Below the pieces are notes generated by a model. It ran no database searches, was not told the DNA's origin, and saw only the letters and a program-made list of their open reading frames with translations. 10,929 nucleotides of DNA from positions 1 to 10,929 of IMG/VR virus record IMGVR_UViG_2698536418_000009; one strand, given 5' to 3'. A program made the position numbers and the translations under genes. This document shows, piece after piece, positions 1-10,929 of this stretch (its first letter is position 1; each line of letters begins with the position of its first letter). This stretch comes from a virus. Its lineage: Duplodnaviria > Heunggongvirae > Uroviricota > Caudoviricetes.

Positions 1-272
1 CCGCGATTGACATACATCGGCGTTTCGGTGGTGTCTTCTTCGGAAATTTTCCCGCGGTTAGTCGGGCGAACATATGAGAGTTTGTGTTTTATTTTCACAC
101 GGTTCTCATCAAACGGTTCGATTTCCAGGTTGAGCGAGACCTTACCTTTGGTTTTCGTGTTCATCACACCGGAAGCGACTTCACTGAGAACTGCGCCGAT
201 TTTGGTTTCAAATACGCCGCCGTCCAGCTCCCCGATAAATGCCTGCACATCAGTACTGCGTTCGCTAGCCAT
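1..272 (-). CDS. Hypothetical early-left-operon protein, partial (start ATG at 272-270, runs off the left edge of the window); N-terminus MASERSTDVQAFIGELDGG...
   Basis: Reverse-strand frame open for 90 codons from ATG (plus 270-272) to the window edge. GAGGAG Shine-Dalgarno 7 nt upstream (rev-comp of 282-287). Not in the ORF track because no stop lies inside the window. Confidence 0.5.
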   Translation of the reverse strand, partial: MASERSTDVQAFIGELDGGVFETKIGAVLSEVASGVMNTKTKGKVSLNLEIEPFDENRVKIKHKLSYVRPTNRGKISEEDTTETPMYVNR

Positions 273-299
273 TTTGCTGCTCCTCATCATATCGACCCT

Positions 300-620
300 G
301 CAAGGTCGGTTGGTTTCTCCACAAAACAGAGAAGAACACCTGCGGTGGCAGCCGCCCGGATGGATTGGGTTATGAGCCCGTCGTCCGGTGATGCTCTTCT
401 CTGTTTTGTAAAAAGGACGGTACCAGCCGGAAGCAAGGATACAAGCTGATACCGCCAAGACTACACACAGCATAAAGTTGTGGTGCCGGGTGCCTCCCGG
501 TGCCTGGCGAAGGTTGCACACCAGGCGGGTGGGTATCCACAGAAGGTCGACTGTCAGCCTCAACCTTAACCCGCGTGCGCTGAGTCGCATTCACCACAAC
601 GCTAAGGATTCTCTTTGGTT
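300..620. other. GC-rich structured non-coding stretch with a perfect 15-bp inverted repeat (321-335 / 395-409) enclosing a 59-nt loop; candidate RNA element
   Basis: ACAAAACAGAGAAGA at 321-335 is the exact reverse complement of TCTTCTCTGTTTTGT at 395-409. Further short GC stems downstream (CCTGG...CCAGG, CCGGG...CCCGG). The only ORFs here are Pro/Arg-rich, implausible products. Confidence 0.3.
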
Positions 621-861
621 GAAAATACTTAGCTGTTATGTGCCTGTCTTTTCACCACTTCAGGCTCGGTGGTATCTTGGTGTTTTCATATAGCCAAGAA
701 GGAAATAGTTATGACCAAAGAAGAAAAATTCTTTATTTATTCCAACTATCGGTTAAGACTCGCACTGCATATCAGACTGCTGCCATGACATCAGATAAAA
801 ATTACAGTACGTCAGAAAACCCGATAGACGACATAAGCAAGCTTTACGATAGTTCGAAGCA

Positions 862-1038
862 CTACTCGATAAAAAGTTTGCTGAGGCTGGGCTTGAGTGA
901 TTGTTGAATAATCGACAAAACCCAACTTAAATTTTCGTCAGTGGGCTCGATGCCATGTGCGGTGAGCTCACTTTTCAAAACTCCAAGCAATTCAGAGCTG
1001 ATTTTCAATATATCTGCTTGAGTTCTAACTATTCCCAC
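862..1038 (-). CDS. Hypothetical small protein of the leftward early operon (58 aa from GTG; alternative ATG start at 1068 gives 68 aa)
   Basis: ORF track 862..1068 minus. Strong SD AGGGAGG (rev-comp) about 5 nt upstream of in-frame GTG at 1038-1036; the ATG at 1068 has no SD. Same orientation as neighbouring early-left genes. Confidence 0.4.
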   Translation of the reverse strand: MGIVRTQADILKISSELLGVLKSELTAHGIEPTDENLSWVLSIIQQSLKPSLSKLFIE

Positions 1039-1127
1039 TTTTTCCTCCCTTGGTCTACGCGCGGTCATGTTTTACGCCCAAACGACTTCACAGTTATTGT
1101 TTAAAATCTGGACTTTCATTTTGTTCT

Positions 1128-1331
1128 TTAACCTCCAGATTTCAGCGTATCTAAAGGCGCATTCTCATTTGGTGTGAACCGAATAGTTGTGCTGATATTG
1201 ATTAATGCCCCGACACACAAGACTACGCACTCAGAGCAGATAGCAACTTCATCTTTTCCGCCTTTGGCGATGATTTTTTTTGCCTGCAGCTCGTTTGCGC
1301 CACAAAACGAGCATGTGAAATAACTGTTCAT
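1128..1331 (-). CDS. Stand-alone ClpX-type C4 zinc-ribbon protein (zf-C4_ClpX-like), about 67 aa
   Basis: Product contains CSFCG...(21 aa)...CSECVVLC, matching the Cys spacing and local residues of the ClpX N-terminal zinc-binding domain (E. coli ClpX: [32 protein letters not shown]). Start is uncertain: the track begins at 1349, the internal Met is at 1331, and my hand reverse-complement near 1317-1321 did not reproduce the track frame. Confidence 0.5.
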   Translation of the reverse strand: MNSYFTCSFCGANELQAKKIIAKGGKDEVAICSECVVLCVGALINISTTIRFTPNENAPLDTLKSGG

Positions 1332-1441
1332 TTGTGCTCTCTTACACATAGTATTTAACGAATCATCCGGTCATTCATACGCCACCGGCGGCTACTTCGT
1401 GGGCGTCCTGCCTGTTCGTTACTGCAACATCTTTAAGTTGT

Positions 1442-1474
1442 AATCTAGTTGTTGTTTTGGTTGTTGTCAACAAC
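1442..1474 (-). promoter_or_regulatory. pL-like leftward early promoter with overlapping operator palindrome (OL)
   Basis: On the minus strand: -35 TTGACA (plus 1465-1470), 17-bp spacer, -10 TAGATT (plus 1442-1447). Palindrome GTTGTTG-T-CAACAAC at 1460-1474 overlaps the -35; another GTTGTTG at 1448-1454. Confidence 0.4.
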
Positions 1475-1664
1475 TTTATGTGGTTTTGACGGATGTGAAA
1501 TGAGGGCAAGGGTTATCAAAAAAGAAGGTTGTATGGACGATGCGCTTTTAATTACACAAGGGACACTTTCCTTCCGTGATTGGAAACTCTCAAATCACGG
1601 GAGGAAGATTGAAAAGGCGGGTAATAATGGTAACTAAATTTCTGAAGGAAGGTTTTTTGATGCA

Positions 1665-2351
1665 TTACCAAGTGCGCGATGACCAGAATACTCTACCTAT
1701 AACGTGAATTCTGGAACGCCTATCTTCGAAGGTGAGTATTTCATCTGGATACTCATCTTTATTGAAACTTCTTAGAATCAGACCACCGTCAGGTAAATTG
1801 ATCAATATTTTAACTCTAAGTAATACGCCATCACGTATGGCATAAAGATCCCCATCACGAATAGGAACCGTTTGGGAAACATCAACAGCAACAAAATCTC
1901 CATTGTTAAGTACAGGTAGTAAACTATTGCCCCAAATTTTTACGATCTTTGCATTGGAGACACATACACCAGCTTTTCTTAAATCAATCCTTCTTAGCGG
2001 GAACCAGTCTACAGTTGATTCAACTATTTCAGCCAAACATCCATTACCCGCTGATAACTCGACATCTAGGACTGGAATGTTTGCAAAAATGTCAGGATCT
2101 AATGCTGTACTTTCAGCCTCCTTTACAACAAGGTCTGGGAAAGACGCGTTATCCTCAATTCCCAATTGCAACCACTTTTGAGAAACCCCTAACACTTTAG
2201 CAATCTCTTTAATTTTCCGAGGCTGTTGAGTTTCTCCATTCTCGATTTTCGCTACGGATTGTTGTGAAAGCCCAATTTTTTCAGCTAGTTGCGCCTGACT
2301 CATTCCTGCTTTTTCTCTTTCGCTTTTTAGTCTTTCTGCCAATGTTTTCAC
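1665..2351 (-). CDS. cI: Phage CI-type repressor: N-terminal XRE-family HTH plus C-terminal S24 (LexA-like) autopeptidase domain
   Basis: 228-aa ORF. N-terminus has the HTH_XRE signature (AGMSQAQLAEKIGLSQQSVAKIENGETQQP); the C-terminal half has the size and layout of an S24 peptidase domain, but I did not identify the catalytic Ser/Lys. Transcribed divergently from the cro-like gene. GTG start with GAGGGGGA SD. Confidence 0.88.
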   Translation of the reverse strand: MKTLAERLKSEREKAGMSQAQLAEKIGLSQQSVAKIENGETQQPRKIKEIAKVLGVSQKWLQLGIEDNASFPDLVVKEAESTALDPDIFANIPVLDVELSAGNGCLAEIVESTVDWFPLRRIDLRKAGVCVSNAKIVKIWGNSLLPVLNNGDFVAVDVSQTVPIRDGDLYAIRDGVLLRVKILINLPDGGLILRSFNKDEYPDEILTFEDRRSRIHVIGRVFWSSRTW

Positions 2352-2378
2352 AACATATCCCCCTCGTTTTTATTGAGG

Positions 2379-2470
2379 TTACAACTTTATGTTTTAGCTT
2401 TCCAACATCTAAAAGTTGTGATAAAAGTTGTTGTAGTTGTATAATCGAAGTTATCAACAACTTTACTACT
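2379..2470 (+). promoter_or_regulatory. OR/pR-like region: rightward promoter (-35 TTGTGA 2416-2421, -10 TATAAT 2440-2445) flanked by operator half-sites
   Basis: Consensus -10 TATAAT with an 18-bp spacer to TTGTGA. Half-sites ACAACTTT (2381-2388), AAAGTTGT (2412-2419), GTTGTTG (2427-2433) and CAACAAC (2455-2461), the same motif family as at OL. AGGAG SD precedes the cro-like ATG at 2489. Confidence 0.45.
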
Positions 2471-2488
2471 TACAGATAGGAGAAAGCT

Positions 2489-2737
2489 ATGACACCTGAG
2501 CAATTAGCCTTATCAGAGGCAATCGCTCTGGCTGGTGGTCAATCAGAATTGGCTCGGAAGCTCACAGCCAGCAGTGGTCGTTTAGTAAAGCAACAACATG
2601 TCTGGAACTGGTTGAACAGAGAAAAGCGTCCCCCTGCAAAGCTCTCGATATTTATTGAAATGACCACTGGCGTATCAAAAGAAAAATTACGTCCAGATAT
2701 TTTTCAAAAGATTAAAGACTTATCAGATGGAAAGTAA
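2489..2737 (+). CDS. Cro-like / YdaS-family HTH regulator (82 aa)
   Basis: First gene rightward of the immunity promoter region. Motif AGGQSELARKL ... RPDIF is typical of the small Cro/YdaS-like (DUF1870-type) prophage regulators. AGGAGA SD 4 nt upstream of the ATG. Confidence 0.7.
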   Translation: MTPEQLALSEAIALAGGQSELARKLTASSGRLVKQQHVWNWLNREKRPPAKLSIFIEMTTGVSKEKLRPDIFQKIKDLSDGK

Positions 2738-3197
2738 CCACAGTTTTAAGGAGATAGCCGTGGGTAAGCATCACTGGAAAGTAGAAAAACAGCCTGAGTG
2801 GTACGTGAAAGCTGTCAGAAAAACTATCGCAACGTTGCCGGGTGGTTACGCTGAAGCAGCTGACTGGCTGGATGTAACAGAGAACGCATTATTTAACCGC
2901 CTTCGTGCCGATGGCGATCAGATTTTCCCGCTGGGATGGGCAATGATTTTGCAACGTGCTGGTGGAACTCACTTCATTGCTGACGCTGTGGCGCAGTCTG
3001 CAAATGGCGTCTTTGTGTCTCTTCCTGACGTCGAGGATGTGGACAACGCCGATATAAACCAGCGCCTGCTGGAAGTCATCGAACAGATCGGGAGTTACTC
3101 AAAGCAGATTCGTTCGGCAATCGAAGATGGGGTAGTGGAGCCACACGAGCAGACAGCAATTAATGATGAGTTGTATCTGTCAATTTCGAAGCTCTAG
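2727..3197 (+). CDS. CII-like early regulator (phage CII/CP76- or YdaT-type), 145-156 aa
   Basis: Sits immediately after the cro-like gene; size and position fit CII-like prophage regulators. ATG at 2727 overlaps the cro-like stop; an in-frame GTG at 2760 has a strong AAGGAG SD (2748-2753), so the true start may be 2760. Confidence 0.55.
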   Translation: MESNHSFKEIAVGKHHWKVEKQPEWYVKAVRKTIATLPGGYAEAADWLDVTENALFNRLRADGDQIFPLGWAMILQRAGGTHFIADAVAQSANGVFVSLPDVEDVDNADINQRLLEVIEQIGSYSKQIRSAIEDGVVEPHEQTAINDELYLSISKL

Positions 3198-3492
3198 GAG
3201 CATGCAGCACTGGTCTACAAAATCTTTTGCGCTCCAGAAGAGAGTAACGCCCGCGAGTGTGCAGCTCCGGGCGTCGTGGCGTCGATTGCTTCTGGTTGTG
3301 GAGAAACTAACGCATGAACAGTTTAACAACACACTACCGTCGCTCGCAACTGATTGCGCTTCCTGTACCGGGTGGAAAAGCGAAGGTGGAGTATTGCTAT
3401 GCAGTGAATGTACCAGGTGACAGGGAAATTGTAACCCACAGCTTTGCAGAGTGGGCTGTGGGTGATTTCAACCGGCAGAAGGAGACAGTCCT

Positions 3493-3705
3493 TTGCGACA
3501 AGTTAACCGCTGGTTCAAAGATCACTACGGAGTGCCCGTCAGAGTCATTCGTTGGGAGCCGGAAACACAACGGGTTATCTACCTCCGTGAAGGCTATGAA
3601 CATGAATGCTTCAGTCCGCTCGAACAGTTTCGTCGTAAATTCAGGGAAATAGAGGTCGGTCATGAGCCTGTTAATGACATCCCAGCCCATTGTGATAAAT
3701 CGTGA
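3493..3705 (+). CDS. Small conserved protein (70 aa, TTG start) directly upstream of and overlapping the O-like gene
   Basis: AAGGAG SD (3479-3484) 8 nt upstream of TTG 3493. All five nucleotide differences between the two copies in this ORF (3573, 3588, 3600, 3606, 3615) are synonymous third-position changes in this frame and would be nonsynonymous in the overlapping frame of ORF 3314..3652. Confidence 0.5.
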
Positions 3706-4021
3706 TCTTGCATGCCGTATTGGTCTGAATGAGGCAATTGTGTTGCAGCAGCTTCATTACTGGCTGAATGAAACGAATTCAGGCACTGAGCATGGCGGAA
3801 TTCGCTGGGTTTATAACACGACAGAACAGTGGCTGGAGCAGTTTCCGTTCTGGTCAGAGTCCACTCTGAAACGCACATTTGCAAGCCTGAAATCACTTGG
3901 GGTTTTGCGTCGCGAGCAACTCAATAAATCGAAGCGTGACATGACCAACTTCTACACGATCAACTATGAAAGTGAGCTTTTAGAAGAGGTCAAAATGCAC
4001 TTCTCCATCGGGTCAAAGTGA
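3662..4021 (+). CDS. O-like replication initiator, N-terminal DNA-binding domain (119 aa), separated from the C-terminal domain by an in-iteron TGA stop and frame change
   Basis: GAGGT SD before ATG 3662. Product ends ...HFSIGSK inside the iteron array. The next ORF (4026..4631) is in a different frame and matches the C-terminal two-thirds of the intact O-like protein at 6552..7493. Confidence 0.55.
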   Translation: MSLLMTSQPIVINRDLACRIGLNEAIVLQQLHYWLNETNSGTEHGGIRWVYNTTEQWLEQFPFWSESTLKRTFASLKSLGVLRREQLNKSKRDMTNFYTINYESELLEEVKMHFSIGSK

Positions 4022-4138
4022 CCTGATGGATGGGCGCAAAATGATACGATCCATTGGTTCAAAACGACACGCTGTCATCGGGTCAAAATGGCCCAATGAT
4101 CTTACAGAGAATACAACAGAGATTACTACAGAGAATAA
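3986..4138 (+). repeat. Candidate ori iterons of copy 1: four GGTCAAA-core repeats (3986-4000, 4008-4023, 4054-4070, 4078-4094) plus three tandem 12-bp A-rich repeats (4103-4138)
   Basis: Direct repeats GAGGTCAAAATGCAC / TCGGGTCAAAGTGACC / TTGGTTCAAAACGACAC / TCGGGTCAAAATGGCCC, then TACAGAGAATAC / AACAGAGATTAC / TACAGAGAATAA. They sit at the N-domain/C-domain junction of the O-like gene, the same place lambda ori sits in gene O. Confidence 0.5.
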
Positions 4139-4631
4139 AACCTCTTCTCGTCCGGACGCTTCGCAACCGGACACGCAAACGGCTGAACAGGAGTTTTTAA
4201 CTCGCCATCCTGATGCGGTTGTATTCAGCCCTAAAAAGCGCCAGTGGGGAACGCAGGATGATTTGACCTGCGCACAGTGGCTCTGGAAAAAAATCATCGC
4301 CCTGTACGAGCAGGCCGCCGAATGTGACGGCGAGGTGGTTCGTCCCAAAGAACCGAACTGGACAGCATGGGCAAACGAAATTCGCCTGATGTGTGTGCAG
4401 GATGGTCGTACTCACAAACAAATCTGCGAGATGTACAGCCGCGTCAGCCGCGATCCGTTCTGGTGCCGTAACGTGCTCAGCCCGTCGAAGTTGCGGGAAA
4501 AATGGGATGAGCTTTCCCTGCGCTTATCGCCGTCCGTCAGCACGCACACAGAAAAACGTGAAGACCCGTACTTCAAAGCCAGTTACGACAACGTGGACTA
4601 CAGCCAGATCCCGGCAGGATTCAGGGGGTGA
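4026..4631 (+). CDS. O-like replication initiator, C-terminal domain ORF (201 aa); possibly the 3' part of a disrupted O gene
   Basis: Residues from TSSRPDASQPDTQTAEQ onward match the C-terminal region of ORF 6552..7493 apart from a few substitutions. Weak SD before ATG 4026. Confidence 0.55.
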   Translation: MDGRKMIRSIGSKRHAVIGSKWPNDLTENTTEITTENKTSSRPDASQPDTQTAEQEFLTRHPDAVVFSPKKRQWGTQDDLTCAQWLWKKIIALYEQAAECDGEVVRPKEPNWTAWANEIRLMCVQDGRTHKQICEMYSRVSRDPFWCRNVLSPSKLREKWDELSLRLSPSVSTHTEKREDPYFKASYDNVDYSQIPAGFRG

Positions 4632-4633
4632 TC

Positions 4634-4726
4634 ATGAGTCTGTTAAATGACGTTCAGAAATTCATTGAAGCCCATCCGGGCTGTACTTCCGGAGACATTG
4701 CGGATGCTTTTTACGTGGGGGCTTAA
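4634..4726 (+). pseudogene. 30-codon remnant of the PerC-like regulator gene (in-frame 396-bp internal deletion relative to 7496..7984)
   Basis: Encodes MSLLNDVQKFIEAHPGCTSGDIADAF + YVGA, i.e. the first 26 and last 4 codons of the 162-aa copy-2 protein. Deletion junction near 4708-4712 in a short T-run. The stop/start overlap TAATG with the methyltransferase gene is retained. Confidence 0.5.
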
Positions 4727-5379
4727 TGAGTAATAAATATTGCCAGGCGCTGGTAGAACTGCGGAACAAACCAGCCCATGAACTGAAGGAAGTGGGCGAT
4801 CAGTGGCGCACGCCGGACAACATTTTCTGGGGAATTAACACCTTGTTTGGTCCGTTTGTTCTGGATCTGTTCACTGACGGTGATAACGCCAAATGTGCCG
4901 CGTATTACACGGCGGAAGACAACGCGCTGGCGCATGACTGGTCAGAACGTCTTGCGGAGCTTAAAGGTGCTGCCTTTGGCAATCCCCCGTACAGCCGCGC
5001 CAGTCAGCATGAGGGGCAATACATCACCGGCATGCGTTACATCATGAAGCATGCCAGTGCCATGCGTGATAAAGGCGGGCGCTATGTTTTCCTGATCAAA
5101 GCTGCCACCGGCGAAGTGTGGTGGCCGGAAGGTGCAGATCATATTGCTTTTATTCGCGGGCGTATTGGTTTTGAACTGCCTGCCTGGTTTATCCCGAAAG
5201 ACGAAAAGCAGGTGCCAACAGGTGCTTTCTTCGCTGGTGCTATTGCTGTTTTCGACAAGACCTGGAAGGGACCGGCAATCAGCTACATCGGGCGCGATGA
5301 ACTTGAGGCATGTGGTGAGGCATTTCTGGCGCAGGTTCGCCAGCAGGCGGAAAAACTGGTCAGGGAGATGGTGGCATGA
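4726..5379 (+). CDS. Phage DNA N6-adenine methyltransferase (orphan, Dam-like), copy 1
   Basis: 217 aa with the catalytic motif GNPPYS (the (D/N/S)PP(Y/F) motif IV of N6-adenine MTases). Start overlaps the upstream stop (TAATG); stop overlaps the rusA start (ATGA). Confidence 0.8.
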   Translation: MSNKYCQALVELRNKPAHELKEVGDQWRTPDNIFWGINTLFGPFVLDLFTDGDNAKCAAYYTAEDNALAHDWSERLAELKGAAFGNPPYSRASQHEGQYITGMRYIMKHASAMRDKGGRYVFLIKAATGEVWWPEGADHIAFIRGRIGFELPAWFIPKDEKQVPTGAFFAGAIAVFDKTWKGPAISYIGRDELEACGEAFLAQVRQQAEKLVREMVA

Positions 5380-5765
5380 AGCTAATACTGCCTTTTCCGC
5401 CCAGCGTGAACACGTACTGGCGACACCCCAACAAAGGGGCATTTGCTGGTAAGAGCCTGATAAGCGAGGCGGGGCGAAAATTTCAGAGCGCGGCGTGTGC
5501 CGCCATCATTGAGCAGTTACGTCGTCTGCCGAAACCAACGTCGGCACCTGCTTCAGTGGAGATCGTGTTGTTTCCTCCGGATAACAGGATCCGCGATCTG
5601 GACAACTATAACAAGGCGCTGTTTGACGCCCTGACCCACGCGGGTGTGTGGGAAGACGACAGTCAGGTGAAAAGAATGCTGGTGGAGTGGGGACCGGTTA
5701 TCCCGAAAGGGAAGGTCGAGATCACTATCAGTAAGTACGAGAAAACGGCGGGTGCAGCCGCCTGA
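5376..5765 (+). CDS. rusA: RusA-family Holliday junction resolvase, copy 1
   Basis: 129 aa; MKLILPFPPSVNTYW... and RDLDNYNKALFDALTHAGVWEDDSQV follow the RusA layout. Typical nin-region position. Confidence 0.85.
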   Translation: MKLILPFPPSVNTYWRHPNKGAFAGKSLISEAGRKFQSAACAAIIEQLRRLPKPTSAPASVEIVLFPPDNRIRDLDNYNKALFDALTHAGVWEDDSQVKRMLVEWGPVIPKGKVEITISKYEKTAGAAA

Positions 5766-5784
5766 TCAAGAGGAGAAACGAAGT

Positions 5785-6207
5785 ATGAATAATCTGATGG
5801 TCATTGATGGTATTGAAGTTCGTCGTGATGTTTATGGGCGTTACAGCCTGAACGATCTACATCACGCAGCAGTAGCATCTGGTGCAAATGCCAGAACCAA
5901 GGAGCCAGGAAAGTTTCTTTCCAGCCAACAAACTGTTGAACTTGTTCATGAATTGACCAACACCCAGAATTTGGGTGTTGACCCGGTGAGTGTGATTCAT
6001 GGGGGAAATGAACGGGGAACGTATGTCTGCAAGGAACTGGTGTATGCCTATGCAATGTGGATCAGCCCGTCATTCCATCTGAAGGTGATCCGTACTTTCG
6101 ATATGGTAACCAGCGCACCGGAAAAATTATCCGGACAGGCTGCTGACAAGATGCAGGCTGGCGTGATCCTGCTGGACTTTATGCGATGTGGAGAAACTAA
6201 CGCATGA
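5785..6207 (+). CDS. KilA-N domain protein, copy 1, C-terminally truncated at the duplication junction (140 aa)
   Basis: AGGAG SD 9 nt before ATG 5785. Matches the first 133 residues of ORF 9366..10175, then diverges at 6186 into 7 novel codons (CGETNA plus stop) supplied by the start of unit 2. Confidence 0.65.
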
Positions 6208-6382
6208 ACAGTTTAACAACACACTACCGTCGCTCGCAACTGATTGCGCTTCCTGTACCGGGTGGAAAAGCGAAGGTGGAGTATTGCTATGCAGTAAATG
6301 TACCAGGTGACAGGGAAATTGTAACCCACAGCTTTGCAGAGTGGGCTGTGGGTGATTTCAACCGGCAGAAGGAGACAGTCCT

Positions 6383-6562
6383 TTGCGACAAGTTAACCGC
6401 TGGTTCAAAGATCACTACGGAGTGCCCGTCAGAGTCATTCGTTGGGAGCCGGAAACACAACGTGTTATCTACCTCCGCGAAGGCTATGAGCATGAGTGCT
6501 TCAGCCCGCTCGAACAGTTTCGTCGTAAATTCAGGGAAATAGAGGTCGGTCATGAGCACTAA
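6383..6562 (+). CDS. Small conserved protein, copy 2 (59 aa, TTG start), overlapping the start of the intact O-like gene
   Basis: Same SD and TTG as at 3493; coding sequence differs from copy 1 only by synonymous changes up to the repeat boundary. Below the ORF-track length cutoff. Confidence 0.45.
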
Positions 6563-7493
6563 ATTAACCGGCTATGTATGGGATGGTTGCGCTGCATCAG
6601 GCATGAAATTATCCAGCGTGGCAATTATGGCCCGCCTGGCTGATTTCAGTAATGACGAAGGTGTGTGCTGGCCATCAATTGAAACCATTGCCCGCCAGAT
6701 TGGCGCGGGGATGAGTACCGTCAGAACGGCTATCGCACGGCTGGAAGCAGAAGGCTGGTTAACGCGTAGGGCGCGTCGCCAGGGTAACCGCAATGCGTCG
6801 AATGTTTATCAGCTTAACGTTGCGAAGCTTCAGGCAGCGGCATTTTCTCAACTGTCAGATTCTGACCCGTCAAAATCTGACGCATCAAAATCTGACCCGT
6901 CAAAATTTGATGCGTCGAAATCTGGCAAAAAAGCGGGTTTTCACCCGTCAGAATCTGGTGGGGATCCGTCAGTAAAATCAAAACATGATCCGTCAGATAA
7001 AAAAACTTCTCGTCCGGACGCTTCGCAACCGGACACGCAGACGGCTGAACAGGATTTTTTAACTCGCCATCCTGATGCGGTTGTATTCAGCCCTAAAAAG
7101 CGCCAGTGGGGGACGCAGGATGATTTGACCTGCGCACAGTGGCTCTGGAAAAAAATCATCGCCCTGTACGAGCATGCCGCCGAATGTGACGGCGAGGTGG
7201 TTCGTCCCAAAGAACCGAACTGGACAGCCTGGGCAAACGAAATTCGCCTGATGTGTGTGCAGGATGGTCGTACTCATAAACAAATCTGCGAGATGTACAG
7301 CCGCGTCAGTCGCGATCCGTTCTGGTGCCGTAACGTGCTCAGCCCGTCGAAGCTGCGGGAAAAATGGGATGAGCTTTCCCTGCGCTTATCGCCGTCCGTC
7401 AGCACGTACACCGAAAAACGCGAAGACCCGTACTTCAAAGCCAGTTACGACAACGTGGACTACAGCCAGATCCCGGCAGGATTCAGGGGGTGA
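6552..7493 (+). CDS. O-like replication initiator (replisome organizer), intact, 313 aa: N-terminal winged-helix DNA-binding domain, iteron-encoded linker, conserved C-terminal domain
   Basis: GAGGT SD 5 nt before ATG 6552. The N-terminal 90 aa look like a helix-turn-helix replication-initiator fold. The linker is encoded by tandem 15-bp repeats (SDPSK/SDASK). C-terminal domain shared with ORF 4026..4631. Confidence 0.75.
   Translation: MSTKLTGYVWDGCAASGMKLSSVAIMARLADFSNDEGVCWPSIETIARQIGAGMSTVRTAIARLEAEGWLTRRARRQGNRNASNVYQLNVAKLQAAAFSQLSDSDPSKSDASKSDPSKFDASKSGKKAGFHPSESGGDPSVKSKHDPSDKKTSRPDASQPDTQTAEQDFLTRHPDAVVFSPKKRQWGTQDDLTCAQWLWKKIIALYEHAAECDGEVVRPKEPNWTAWANEIRLMCVQDGRTHKQICEMYSRVSRDPFWCRNVLSPSKLREKWDELSLRLSPSVSTYTEKREDPYFKASYDNVDYSQIPAGFRG
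6861..7006 (+). repeat. Candidate ori iterons of copy 2: four tandem 15-bp repeats (consensus about CCGTCAAAATCTGAC, 6866-6925), an A-rich tract, and three degenerate CCGTCAG-containing repeats
   Basis: CCGTCAAAATCTGAC / GCATCAAAATCTGAC / CCGTCAAAATTTGAT / GCGTCGAAATCTGGC, then GGCAAAAAAGCGGG, then CCCGTCAGAATCTGG, TCCGTCAGTAAAATC, TCCGTCAGATAAAAAAAC. Located inside the O-like gene linker. Confidence 0.55.
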
Positions 7494-7495
7494 TC

Positions 7496-7984
7496 ATGAG
7501 TCTTTTGAATGACGTTCAGAAATTCATTGAAGCCCATCCGGGGTGTACTTCCGGAGACATTGCGGATGCTTTTGCAGGTTACTCACGACAGCGCGTTCTG
7601 CAGTCAGCAAGCAAGTTACGTCAGAGTGGGCGTGTGGCTCACCGTTGTGAAGGGGATACACGCAGACATTTCCCGCGGCTGACTGAGATACCGCAGGAGC
7701 CGGAACCGCAACCAGTTCGTGAATCCAGACCTGTGCGCAATTTCTATGTCGGCACTAACGATCCCCGGGTGATTTTGTGCCTGACCCGCCAGGCGGAAGA
7801 ACTGGAGTCCAGGGGCTTATACCGTCGTGCTGCAACGGTGTGGATGGCGGCATTCCGTGAAAGCCACTCCCAGCAAGAGCGAAACAATTTTCTGGCGCGT
7901 CGTGAGCGGTGTTTACGGAAAAGCAGCAAGCGCGCTGCATCGGGTGAAGAGTGGTATCTGTCAGGGAATTACGTGGGGGCTTAA
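7496..7984 (+). CDS. PerC-like transcriptional regulator with N-terminal HTH-like region (162 aa)
   Basis: C-terminal motif AEELESRGLYRRAATVWMAAF resembles the PerC/Pch family signature as I remember it. AGGGGG SD before ATG 7496. Stop overlaps the MTase start (TAATG). Confidence 0.5.
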   Translation: MSLLNDVQKFIEAHPGCTSGDIADAFAGYSRQRVLQSASKLRQSGRVAHRCEGDTRRHFPRLTEIPQEPEPQPVRESRPVRNFYVGTNDPRVILCLTRQAEELESRGLYRRAATVWMAAFRESHSQQERNNFLARRERCLRKSSKRAASGEEWYLSGNYVGA

Positions 7985-8637
7985 TGAGTAATAAATATTG
8001 CCAGGCGCTGGTGGAGCTGCGGAACAAACCAGCCCATGAACTGAAGGAAGTGGGCGATCAGTGGCGCACGCCGGACAACATTTTCTGGGGAATTAACACC
8101 CTGTTTGGCCCGTTTGTTCTGGATCTGTTTACTGATGGTGATAACGCCAAATGCGCCGCGTATTACACTGCGGAAGACAACGCGCTGGCGCATGACTGGT
8201 CAGAACGTCTTGCGGAGCTTAAAGGTGCTGCCTTTGGTAATCCCCCGTACAGCCGCGCCAGTCAGCATGAGGGGCAATACATCACCGGCATGCGTTACAT
8301 CATGAAGCATGCCAGTGCCATGCGTGATAAAGGCGGGCGCTATGTTTTCCTGATCAAAGCTGCCACCAGCGAAGTTTGGTGGCCGGAAGATGCAGACCAT
8401 ATTGCTTTTATTCGCGGGCGTATTGGTTTTGAACTGCCAGCCTGGTTTATCCCGAAGGACGAGAAGCAGGTGCCGACAGGCGCTTTCTTCGCTGGTGCTA
8501 TTGCTGTTTTCGACAAGACCCGGAAGGGACCGGCAATCAGCTACATCGGGCGCGATGAACTTGAGGCATGTGGTGAGGCCTTTCTGGCGCAGGTTCGCCA
8601 GCAGGCGGAAAAACTGGTCAGGGAGATGGCGGCATGA
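7984..8637 (+). CDS. Phage DNA N6-adenine methyltransferase (orphan, Dam-like), copy 2
   Basis: 217 aa with GNPPYS motif. Differs from copy 1 by about 20 nt substitutions counted by eye, giving 4 amino-acid changes. The track start at 7951 is an upstream GTG; the ATG at 7984 matches copy 1. Confidence 0.8.
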   Translation: MSNKYCQALVELRNKPAHELKEVGDQWRTPDNIFWGINTLFGPFVLDLFTDGDNAKCAAYYTAEDNALAHDWSERLAELKGAAFGNPPYSRASQHEGQYITGMRYIMKHASAMRDKGGRYVFLIKAATSEVWWPEDADHIAFIRGRIGFELPAWFIPKDEKQVPTGAFFAGAIAVFDKTRKGPAISYIGRDELEACGEAFLAQVRQQAEKLVREMAA

Positions 8638-8960
8638 CGACGTTAACTCAATGCCAGCAGCAGGTGCTGGATATGCTGATTTCTTACCAGCAAGAACGTG
8701 GCTTTCCGCCAACCAATCAGGAGGTGGCAACCATGCTGGGATACCGTTCGGTGAATGCAGCGGTGGAGCATCTTCGCGCACTGGAGAAAAAAGGCGTCAT
8801 CACGATAAAGCGTGGCGTGGCCCGGGGGATAACTCTTCATACCGCGGTGAAGGACGACGACAGCGAGGCGGTCGGGATTATCCGCGCACTGCTTGCCGGT
8901 GAGGAAAACGCCAGGCTGCGTGCAGCCCACTGGTTACATGAGAGGGGCCTGAAAGTATGA
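8634..8960 (+). CDS. LexA N-terminal DNA-binding-domain protein lacking the S24 peptidase domain (108 aa)
   Basis: TQCQQQVLDMLISYQQERGFPPTNQEVATMLGYRSVNAAVEHLRALEKKGVITIKRGVARGITL aligns with the E. coli LexA winged-helix DNA-binding domain (...[62 protein letters not shown]). No peptidase domain follows. ATGA overlaps at both ends. Confidence 0.7.
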   Translation: MTTLTQCQQQVLDMLISYQQERGFPPTNQEVATMLGYRSVNAAVEHLRALEKKGVITIKRGVARGITLHTAVKDDDSEAVGIIRALLAGEENARLRAAHWLHERGLKV

Positions 8961-9346
8961 AGCTGATCTTGCCTTTCCCGCCCAGCGTGAACACGTACTG
9001 GCGACACCCCAACAAAGGGGCGTTTGCTGGTAAGAGTCTGATAAGCGCAGCGGGGCGCAAATTCCAGAGCGCGGCGTGCGCAGCAATAGTTGAGCAGTTA
9101 CGTCGTCTGCCGAAACCAACGTCGGCACCTGCTTCAGTGGAGATCGTGTTGTTTCCTCCGGATAACCGGATCCGCGATCTGGACAACTATAACAAGGCGC
9201 TGTTTGACGCCCTGACCCATGCGGGTGTGTGGGAAGACGACAGTCAGGTGAAAAGAATGCTGGTGGAGTGGGGACCGGTTATCCCGAAAGGGAAGGTCGA
9301 GATCACTATCAGTAAGTACGAGAAAACGGCGGGTGCAGCCGCCTGA
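8957..9346 (+). CDS. rusA: RusA-family Holliday junction resolvase, copy 2
   Basis: 129 aa, 2 amino-acid differences from copy 1. Start overlaps the stop of the upstream LexA-DBD gene. Confidence 0.85.
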   Translation: MKLILPFPPSVNTYWRHPNKGAFAGKSLISAAGRKFQSAACAAIVEQLRRLPKPTSAPASVEIVLFPPDNRIRDLDNYNKALFDALTHAGVWEDDSQVKRMLVEWGPVIPKGKVEITISKYEKTAGAAA

Positions 9347-9365
9347 TCAAGAGGAGAAACGAAGT

Positions 9366-10175
9366 ATGAATAATCTGATGGTCATTGATGGTATTGAAGT
9401 TCGTCGTGATGTTTATGGGCGTTACAGCCTGAACGATCTACATCACGCAGCAGTAGCATCTGGTGCAAATGCCAGAACCAAGGAGCCAGGAAAGTTTCTT
9501 TCCAGCCAACAAACTGTTGAACTTGTTCATGAATTGACCAACACCCAGAATTTGGGTGTTGACCCGGTGAGTGTGATTCATGGGGGAAATGAACGGGGAA
9601 CGTATGTCTGCAAGGAACTGGTGTATGCCTATGCAATGTGGATCAGCCCGTCATTCCATCTGAAGGTGATCCGTACTTTCGACATGGTAACCAGCACACC
9701 GGAAAAATTATCCGGACAGGCTGCTGACAAGATGCAGGCTGGTGTGATTCTGCTGGACTTTATGCGTCGGGAATTAAACCTGTCTAACTCATCTGTGCTT
9801 GGTGCCTGTCAGAAACTCCAGGAGGCTGTTGGCTTACCGAATCTGGCACCGCGCTATGCCATTGATGCTCCTGCTGATGCACACGATGGCTCAAGTCGCC
9901 CGACACTGTCACTGAGTGCACTGCTGAAACAGTATGGTATCCGCCTGACGGCTAATCAGGCATATCACCAGATGGCAAAGCTGGGGATCGTTGAACAACG
10001 TGAACGATACAGCCGCACTGCGATTAACAACATCAAAAAATTCTGGTCGCTGACGGCGAAAGGCTGCATGTTCGGCAAGAACATCACCAGTCCCGCAAAT
10101 CCGCGCGAGACGCAGCCGCATTTCTTCGAATCCCGATTCCCTGAGCTGTTAAAGCTGCTCGATACCGTTCATTGA
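9366..10175 (+). CDS. KilA-N domain protein with C-terminal antirepressor-like extension (269 aa), full-length copy
   Basis: AGGAG SD 9 nt before ATG 9366. The N-terminal 110 aa have the size and position of a KilA-N domain (recalled, not aligned). The C-terminal 135 aa are unique to this copy. Confidence 0.7.
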   Translation: MNNLMVIDGIEVRRDVYGRYSLNDLHHAAVASGANARTKEPGKFLSSQQTVELVHELTNTQNLGVDPVSVIHGGNERGTYVCKELVYAYAMWISPSFHLKVIRTFDMVTSTPEKLSGQAADKMQAGVILLDFMRRELNLSNSSVLGACQKLQEAVGLPNLAPRYAIDAPADAHDGSSRPTLSLSALLKQYGIRLTANQAYHQMAKLGIVEQRERYSRTAINNIKKFWSLTAKGCMFGKNITSPANPRETQPHFFESRFPELLKLLDTVH

Positions 10176-10182
10176 GGTGACC

Positions 10183-10929
10183 GTGAGAGCACTACTGACC
10201 CCTGAAATTGCCCCGCGTATGGGGATCGTATTGTTCAGGCCAGGTTCAGAGCTGATGCCCCTGTTTATGCAGGGGCGTGTCCTGCTGGAGCCTGAGCCGG
10301 AGCGTTATTCATCTTTCGCCAGTGGTGCCGTTCCGGCGGCATCACAACCGCTGGCGGATGATCCTGCCGTTCGGGCCGTGTTCCGCAATGAGGCAGTGAT
10401 CCGTCGTGCTGGTGGCGTGGAATGTCTTGAAAGCTGGTTACTTCGTGAAAAAGGCTGCCAGTGGCCTCATTCCGACTGGCACAGCGAGAACATGACCACA
10501 ATGCGACACGCTCCGGGTGCAATCCGTCTGTGCTGGCACTGCGATAACCAGCTGCGCGATCAGTTCACGGAACGGCTGGAATCAATGGCAACGGATAACT
10601 GTGCCCGCTGGGTGTTGTCTGTTGTGCGTCGGGATCTCGGTTTTGATGACAGTCACGTTGTGACAATGCCGGAACTGTGCTGGTGGCTGATTCGTAATGA
10701 TCTGGCGGATGCCTTACCGGAAAGTGCAGCCCGTAAGGCACTGAGATTACCGAAGCCTGTTGTGCCGTCTGTTACCCGGGAAAGTGACCTTGTGCCTTCG
10801 GTTCCTGCCACCAGCATCATCCAGGATAAGGCGAAAAAGGTGCTGGCGCTGAAAGTGGATCCGGAGTCGCCGGAGTCTTTTATGTTACGCCCAAAACGTC
10901 GCCGCTGGGTTAATGAAAAGTACACGCGC
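10183..10929 (+). CDS. Conserved prophage protein with a Cys/His cluster, partial (runs off the right edge of the window); start uncertain (GTG 10183 or ATG 10219)
   Basis: Plus-strand frame open for 249 codons to the window end with E. coli-like codon usage. Contains C-x-W-x-H ... H ... C-W-H-C spacing that could bind metal. The minus-strand track ORFs 10265..10522 and 10653..10925 are shorter and judged to be shadows. Confidence 0.5.
   Translation, partial: MRALLTPEIAPRMGIVLFRPGSELMPLFMQGRVLLEPEPERYSSFASGAVPAASQPLADDPAVRAVFRNEAVIRRAGGVECLESWLLREKGCQWPHSDWHSENMTTMRHAPGAIRLCWHCDNQLRDQFTERLESMATDNCARWVLSVVRRDLGFDDSHVVTMPELCWWLIRNDLADALPESAARKALRLPKPVVPSVTRESDLVPSVPATSIIQDKAKKVLALKVDPESPESFMLRPKRRRWVNEKYTR

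Follow-up and report, generated by a model that had tools for sequence, protein, structure and literature searches.

A λO-like initiator gene split inside its iterons: a probable case of prophage decay in Escherichia coli through the loss of one 23-bp repeat

The split λO-like initiator gene in the window, i.e. the whole stretch of 10,929 nucleotides analysed here, is very likely a recent pseudogene that arose by the loss of one 23-bp iteron and that belongs to a replication-defective prophage, the second O-like gene of the window ('copy 2') having been brought beside it by a scaffold join. The left part of the window appears to represent the early region of a lambdoid E. coli prophage that resembles CPS-53/KpLE1. 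The initiator encoded there would consist of an N-terminal DNA-binding domain, a disordered linker and a C-terminal domain of the λO type, and the DNA that encodes the linker would at the same time be the replication origin, with six iterons about 23 bp apart followed by A-rich repeats. Misalignment of iterons 1 and 2 at their common 8-bp repeat AGGTCAAA probably removed one 23-bp unit, either through replication slippage or through short-homology recombination. The frame thereby shifts, and the next iteron, now read out of frame, supplies a TGA. Translation of the gene would give an N-domain fragment of 119 aa and at most one further fragment, the C-domain, with an initiation of its own. The origin retains five iterons, and the most likely consequence is that the prophage no longer initiates its own theta replication. 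In kind, this is a new example of a known event, ordinary prophage decay, in which a single deletion damages gene and origin together because the origin repeats are embedded in the initiator gene.

The deletion and the two reading frames

The split gene comprises the following features:
3662..4021, plus strand: ORF of the N-terminal fragment, 119 aa plus stop (ORF list and sequence)
3987..3994, plus strand: deletion junction with the 8-bp microhomology AGGTCAAA (alignment to three intact alleles)
4019..4021, plus strand: premature TGA inside iteron GGGTCAAAGTGACC (codon phases of each iteron)
4026..4631, plus strand: ORF of the C-terminal fragment, 201 aa if started at ATG 4026, 196 aa if started at ATG 4041 (the GenBank call)

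An earlier sequence-only reading of this DNA had described an N-terminal ORF that ends at TGA 4019-4021 within an iteron, a C-terminal domain that resumes in another frame at ATG 4026, and two frames that are both open between 3984 and 4021. All three observations hold. Sequence and ORF list agree on the position of the stop, the C-terminal domain is encoded by the 201-aa ORF that extends to 4631 and lies in the +1 frame relative to the N-terminal ORF according to the ORF list, and the +1 frame is closed by TAG 3981-3983 and thus open from 3984, so that the two open frames overlap over 3984-4021.

The nature and the site of the lesion have to be revised, however. The same reading held that a single-base indel would restore one gene, and removing one base within 3984-4018 does formally fuse the two frames, but the real lesion is a 23-bp deletion. 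It lies not at the stop but upstream of it: alignment to intact homologues, which had been proposed as a means of locating the indel, places the loss of a 23-bp iteron unit, not of a single base, at 3987-3994. Compared with the intact alleles the window is without AGGTCAAAGTGAACGAATCCATC, which is exactly one iteron unit, and these 23 bp are the sole gap in the alignment, ruling out a single-base indel or a homopolymer error. The breakpoints are located inside the 8-bp repeat AGGTCAAA common to iterons 1 and 2, the iteron at the junction is a hybrid of these two, and the deletion reduces the number of iterons from six to five. Moreover, when positions 3600-4700 were compared by megablast with phage records and complete E. 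coli genomes, the query was matched over its full length by sequences that exceed it by 23 bp. In the matched records the region is one 330-codon CDS, annotated as 'hypothetical protein', 'phage replication protein O' or, in phage mEp460_4F5, 'Primosomal protein I'. Apart from the gap, a single substitution in 1415 bp (window positions 3297-4711) separates the window from the intact alleles closest to it, L001, L003 and L016.

As 23 is not a multiple of 3, the deletion shifts the frame. Residues 1-110 of the 119-aa product are identical to the intact 330-aa homologue and are followed by 9 out-of-frame residues, i.e. the stop sits 9 codons 3' of the deletion junction. Across the next iteron the shifted frame reads GGG TCA AAG TGA, whereas the intact gene reads the same bases as GGT CAA AGT GAC; the TGA is thus intrinsic to iteron GGGTCAAAGTGACC once this is read in the shifted frame. 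Homologues with a continuous ORF, a lesion bounded by the direct repeat AGGTCAAA and a shifted frame are the marks of a deletion pseudogene, and all of them are found here. The pseudogene, one of two options offered by the earlier reading, fits all comparative evidence, the gene being a broken λO-like initiator split within its iteron array, and the two CDSs annotated as 'replication protein' and 'phage O protein family' should be corrected to one frameshifted gene.

A full-length initiator with a five-iteron linker might nevertheless be made by +1 ribosomal frameshifting at AAG-UGA-C (4016-4022), although we regard this as extremely improbable. The +1 direction is the one required to enter the C-terminal frame, and the stop UGA is followed by C and preceded by GGG a few bases upstream, an arrangement that we take to resemble the prfB frameshift site superficially. 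Yet the site was born of a very recent deletion, and the homologues read through this region in one frame. Additionally, re-pairing of the Lys-tRNA from AAG to AGU is poor, and there is no strong SD sequence at a prfB-like spacing. A programmed +1 frameshift gene of the prfB type was rejected since the shift site is not conserved across homologues and was created by the deletion.

The intragenic origin and the domains of the initiator

Two families of direct repeats lie in the linker-coding part of the split gene:
3988..4090, plus strand: five-iteron array with cores at 3988-3997, 4011-4020, 4034-4043, 4057-4066 and 4081-4090
4103..4141, plus strand: three 12-bp A-rich repeats, TACAGAGAATAC-like, directly 3' of the iterons and encoding TENTTEITTEN

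With up to two mismatches to GGTCAAAATG allowed, five matches are found on the same strand, starting at 3988, 4011, 4034, 4057 and 4081 with spacings of 23, 23, 23 and 24 bp. These five fall within 110 nt, compared with no more than three in 300 first-order Markov simulations of the window. Intact homologues have six iterons at spacings of 23, 23, 23, 23 and 24 bp, and as a result of this 23-bp period the codon phase in which the intact gene reads them runs 2, 1, 0, 2, 1 and 1. The linker encoded by the six iterons is kept in the same register in 80 of 80 IMG/VR relatives, the proteins of which are 68-100% identical. The A-rich repeats occupy the place of the AT-rich unwinding region of oriλ, collinear with the annotation of λO and oriλ, and by analogy they would play a similar role in unwinding. 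At least four regularly spaced iterons in the linker-coding part, followed by an A/T-rich region, constitute the layout of an intragenic origin, and this is the layout seen here. In the linker regions of two relatives, L051 and L054, we observed that L051 appears to carry an extra A-rich repeat unit, which suggests in-frame variation of copy number in the A-rich family as well.

Loss of iteron units is not restricted to the window. In P0132 (L093, MBPV01000040.1, positions 1780-1940) 46 bp are missing, which fuses iterons 1 and 3, shifts the frame and results in a 109-aa product, and in P0013 (L094, a contig of a Logan assembly, positions 1790-1910) 93 bp are missing, fusing iterons 2 and 6 in frame and leaving 299 aa. 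There are thus three independent unit-length iteron deletions in the O-like gene, of 23, 46 and 93 bp, showing that such deletions recur in a widespread enterobacterial O-like family, and as far as these alleles tell, the iteron array is a hot spot for repeat-mediated deletions of unit length. Reversible phase variation, which was also considered, is unlikely as the repeats are imperfect and every variant seen is a deletion; the finding that none of the relatives examined has more than six iterons argues in the same direction.

The intact protein is matched over its full length by PHROG 391, 'replication initiation O-like' (E 7e-102), while searches of Pfam, NCBIfam and PDB sequences returned no significant family or structure for it. 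The C-terminal domain of the intact homologue is 33% identical to λO over 148 aa (BLASTP, E 1e-26). In both proteins this alignment starts just 3' of the iterons, and hence the architecture of the origin is collinear with that of λ. The C-terminal fragment contains the rest of the linker and the complete λO-type C-terminal domain and is matched by PHROG 2357 and PHROG 391. Residues 1-109 at the N-terminus are matched by PHROG 6493 and PHROG 391, and the best matches of the N-domain are PHROG 6493, 'DnaD-like helicase loader', and other replication-initiation PHROGs. The N-domain gives no alignment to λO and no match to Pfam Phage_rep_O above threshold. Judging from these matches, the gene encodes an O-like protein with an N-domain from a sequence family other than that of λO. 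An AF2 model of low confidence (mean pLDDT 54.9), built on an alignment of 18 sequences and used for coarse domain limits only, places the N-domain at 11-101, a disordered part at 103-177 and the C-domain at 183-296. In this low-confidence model the N-domain is composed of helices and a hairpin, the C-domain is helical, and the disordered part is the one encoded by iterons and A-rich repeats. The N-terminal fragment is predicted to carry a DNA-binding, winged-helix-like domain.

Downstream of the O-like gene a PerC/YfdN-like gene or a remnant of it is followed by genes for Dam methyltransferase, RusA and KilA-N. No P-like or DnaC-like helicase-loader gene is present 3' of either replication module (window 4632-5400 and 7490-8640; L001 and L002), and this absence contrasts with the homology of the C-domain to the P-binding domain of λO. 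Directly 3' of the split gene, at 4635-4727, lies a PerC/YfdN-like remnant of 30 codons, which is about 395 bp shorter than the counterpart on the copy-2 side (7490-7984). This deletion is an older, separate event, as the remnant is annotated as incomplete also beside intact O1 genes, i.e. intact genes of the type that is split here. On the 5' side, both O-like genes are directly preceded by a conserved 112-aa ORF of PHROG 1170, function unknown (3314-3652 and 6204-6542), and in this region RefSeq has a shorter DUF4222 protein.

Reality and age of the allele, and the second replication module

An exact-sequence look-up finds the 119-aa product on 7 contigs from several E. coli assemblies, among them the 5.19-Mb contig UGCP01000002.1 and the record of the window itself, which is the whole of CYCB01000068.1 of GCA_001283405.1. 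The carriers belong to the accession series CYCB, CYBY, JHSN, JHRP and JICA, plus UGCP01000002.1. Over 3297-4711 the window shares every base with L005, L006 and L009 (100% identity), and a single position sets L004 and L008 apart from it.

Might the gene, then, be intact in reality and the split have arisen during sequencing or assembly, with the iteron region collapsed or miscalled? The window is a short draft scaffold with at least one doubtful join, and assemblies are error-prone at repeats, so the question is a fair one. The missing piece, however, is a 23-bp imperfect repeat and not a homopolymer, and the same deletion is present in all five accession series and in the 5.19-Mb contig. 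Adjacent iterons share merely an 8-bp identical core, which we judge too short for assembly collapse given the word sizes that assemblers usually employ. With the same allele shared by different accession series, a sequencing error, which the sequence-only reading had named as the outcome that would overturn it, is contradicted by the identical copies, and we consider an artefact of any such kind very unlikely.

The allele is rare. A 41-nt probe across the junction of the five-iteron form has no match among 5,426 complete E. coli genomes, whereas the six-iteron form is present in 157 of them. A junction 31-mer occurs in no JGI metagenome contig and in a single IMG/VR contig of 11,259 bp, which is probably the JHRP01000154.1 contig behind L009, while intact 330-aa alleles are recorded on hundreds of contigs. 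The five-iteron allele is, as these counts indicate, derived and rare in the population. Since one substitution in 1415 bp separates it from the closest intact alleles, the deletion is, on this comparison, evolutionarily very recent. The 7 carriers may be clonally related and may thus represent a single persisting event. The split is not conserved either: the 80 of 80 IMG/VR relatives and the listed full-length homologues are single ORFs of about 300-332 aa, intact full-length homologues among those listed (from E. coli, E. albertii, Citrobacter and Salmonella) having 321-330 aa. A naturally split two-gene initiator was accordingly discarded, diverged relatives being single ORFs.

The right part of the window contains a second replication module:
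6186, no strand: scaffold gap, N in CYCB01000068.1 and A in the window
6552..7493, plus strand: 'copy 2', an intact 313-aa O-like initiator with an HTH_36 N-domain unrelated to that of copy 1

The C-domain of copy 2, which is of the O2 type, is 96% identical to that of the split gene, and copy 2 has its own repeat array at 6855-6929, different from the iterons of the split gene. Between O1 and O2 the N-domain and the repeat array are exchanged together and the C-domain is kept, as would be expected for a specificity module. Within 6840-6998 the copy-2 repeats are units of about 15 bp such as TCAAAATCTGACCCG, partly inverted and encoding SDSDPSKSDASKSDPSKFDASKS.

The adjacent tandem of copy 1 and copy 2, on which the sequence-only reading relied, is unsupported. 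In a base-by-base comparison the N/A at 6186 is the sole difference between the window and the public record in 10,929 bases. At this very position homology to the KilA-N gene ends (6185) and homology to the 3'-end of ymfL starts (6187). None of the 5,426 complete E. coli genomes contains the junction at 6186, and every other contig with the split allele has just one replication module; a true tandem duplication or a phage-phage recombinant was rejected for these reasons, together with the N at 6186. In L004-L006, L008 and L009 the sequence of the left part runs on into a complete KilA-N gene, and positions 6187-10929 are collinear, at 99.4% identity, with ordinary single-module prophages that have an O2-type early region. 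On this evidence the tandem is a scaffold join of two contigs, which most likely stem from two related prophages of one strain, and copy 2 belongs to the same assembly but probably to a different prophage. The join at 6186 therefore creates a false tandem duplication of replication modules.

In the last 84 bases of the left piece there are four mismatches to L006, at 6102, 6115, 6162 and 6168. These are the only differences from L006 over 1-6185, and at these sites L006 agrees with the copy-2 side; the end of the left piece looks like a poor or chimeric contig end. H126 (ETEC4073), a candidate for a similar junction, was rejected as an unrelated decayed prophage.

The fragments and the loss of replication

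As judged by pairing with the anti-SD sequence, the two possible starts of the C-terminal ORF differ (-3.2 kcal/mol at ATG 4026, -6.0 at ATG 4041, compared with -6.5 at the native start). As ATG 4026 is only 4 nt past the stop at 4019-4021, and as the SD-like pairing of ATG 4041 is close to the native value, re-initiation at the C-terminal ORF is plausible. An internal promoter for this ORF was dropped from consideration, since a promoter scan of 3200-4800 detected no σ70-like site. A C-domain polypeptide may thus be made, and 'pseudogene' does not necessarily mean 'no product'.

The fragments could accordingly be functional, i.e. the N-domain could bind iterons and/or a free C-domain made from ATG 4026 or ATG 4041 could act in trans. 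They might constitute a split initiator or, more plausibly, inhibitors that block origins of the same iteron specificity or titrate a partner of the O2-type C-domain in the same genome, an activity that would be relevant to the interference of defective prophages with phages related to them. We consider such functions unlikely. Several observations are compatible with them, as neither the predicted N-domain nor the C-domain is truncated in its fragment, the start sites allow re-initiation as described above, and the C-domains of O1 and O2 are nearly the same. Moreover, K-12 keeps a free C-domain, YfdO, which is 98% identical and the deletion of which lowered survival under oxidative stress (PMC3105296), a stand-alone C-domain family exists in PHROGs (phrog_2357), and plasmid-borne oriλ fragments can inhibit phages of the λ replication type (PMC3349717). 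On the other side, there is no split gene among the intact full-length relatives examined, broken versions are confined to rare deletion alleles, e.g. L093, and a rare allele one substitution away from the intact form has left no time for selection on fragments. The interval 3200-4800 is devoid of promoter-like sites, adjacency to copy 2 is a scaffold artefact, and λO needs its C-terminus, its last five residues and its covalent architecture being required for function (PMC6022878).

In a further version, which we rate as quite improbable, the iteron array would be a recurrent deletion-prone weak point for the loss of replication, and the out-of-frame fragments would interfere in trans. If this were true, an iteron-binding N-domain and a free YfdO-like C-domain, both stable, would arise from out-of-frame versions of the gene, their targets would be phages, or prophages of the same host, with the same iteron specificity or the same C-domain partner, and superinfection interference or cross-prophage replication control would be a by-product.

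Returning to the favoured pseudogene, what does the deletion damage most? In λ, a 24-bp deletion that removes iteron 4 abolishes O complementation, and small deletions in the iterons and the AT-rich region of O yield ori-defective phage (PMC6022878). In Stx phages with six iterons, binding is efficient only at the four iterons nearest to the AT-rich region (PMC7466680). By analogy, an origin that has lost a distal iteron might still function in cis, given that an initiator is supplied. Based on these reports on λO and iteron 4 and on the distal Stx iterons, we infer that the main damage is to the protein, the two domains of which are uncoupled, that the origin is mildly altered and that the prophage is unable to start its own replication. 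Cells are known to survive the induction of a defective λ prophage when its replication is lost, as used in replicative-killing selections (PMC6022878). As such a loss rescues the cells upon induction, alleles of this kind may be tolerated or even favoured in a resident prophage. Another case of decay is seen in E. coli ETEC4073 (L010, 7197-8174), where fragments of KilA-N and DUF968 are fused to a truncated gene of the O2 type in another, heavily decayed prophage of the family, which shows that resident prophages frequently lose their replication module.

The intact O1-type initiators VUD37846.1 (mEp460_4F5), WP_024224482.1 and WP_000054957.1 are the same gene as the one split here, the closest chromosomal alleles being those with 1 substitution in 1415 bp, but they have six iterons and a continuous frame of 330 codons, whereas the window has five iterons and a frameshift. 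With λO and oriλ the gene shares an origin inside the initiator gene, made up of iterons and a subsequent A/T-rich region that encode the interdomain linker, and a homologous C-terminal domain. In contrast to λ, the N-domain has no detectable similarity to that of λO, the intact gene has six iterons at 23-bp spacing compared with four in λ, and no P-like helicase-loader gene follows. The r-mutants and ti12 are classical ori-defective mutants of λ, and small deletions in the iteron or AT-rich region represent the classical way of inactivating the origin (PMC6022878). The sequenced r-mutants, however, are in-frame deletions that keep O in frame (PMC6022878), whereas the 23-bp deletion described here shifts the frame. 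The Stx phages 933W and P27 also have a six-iteron array inside the O gene, as has the intact form of the present gene, and in these phages binding is weak at the iterons that are distal to the AT-rich region (PMC7466680), the unit lost here being a distal one as well. Their N-domains and iterons, however, are of the λ type, and both the N-domain and the iteron sequence differ here.

The nearest parallel in a resident prophage is CPS-53 (KpLE1) of K-12, which belongs to the same prophage family and in which yfdO adjoins yfdN, yfdP, yfdQ and yfdR. Likewise left over from a broken O-like gene, YfdO (122 aa; L011, 6879-7247) is a free C-domain, and it is 98% identical to the corresponding 122 residues of the C-terminal fragment in the window, all except the last two of the protein. 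In K-12, however, the whole N-domain, the iterons and the immunity region are deleted, whereas both halves of the gene and five iterons remain in the prophage described here, and it is for YfdO that a deletion phenotype under oxidative stress has been reported (PMC3105296).
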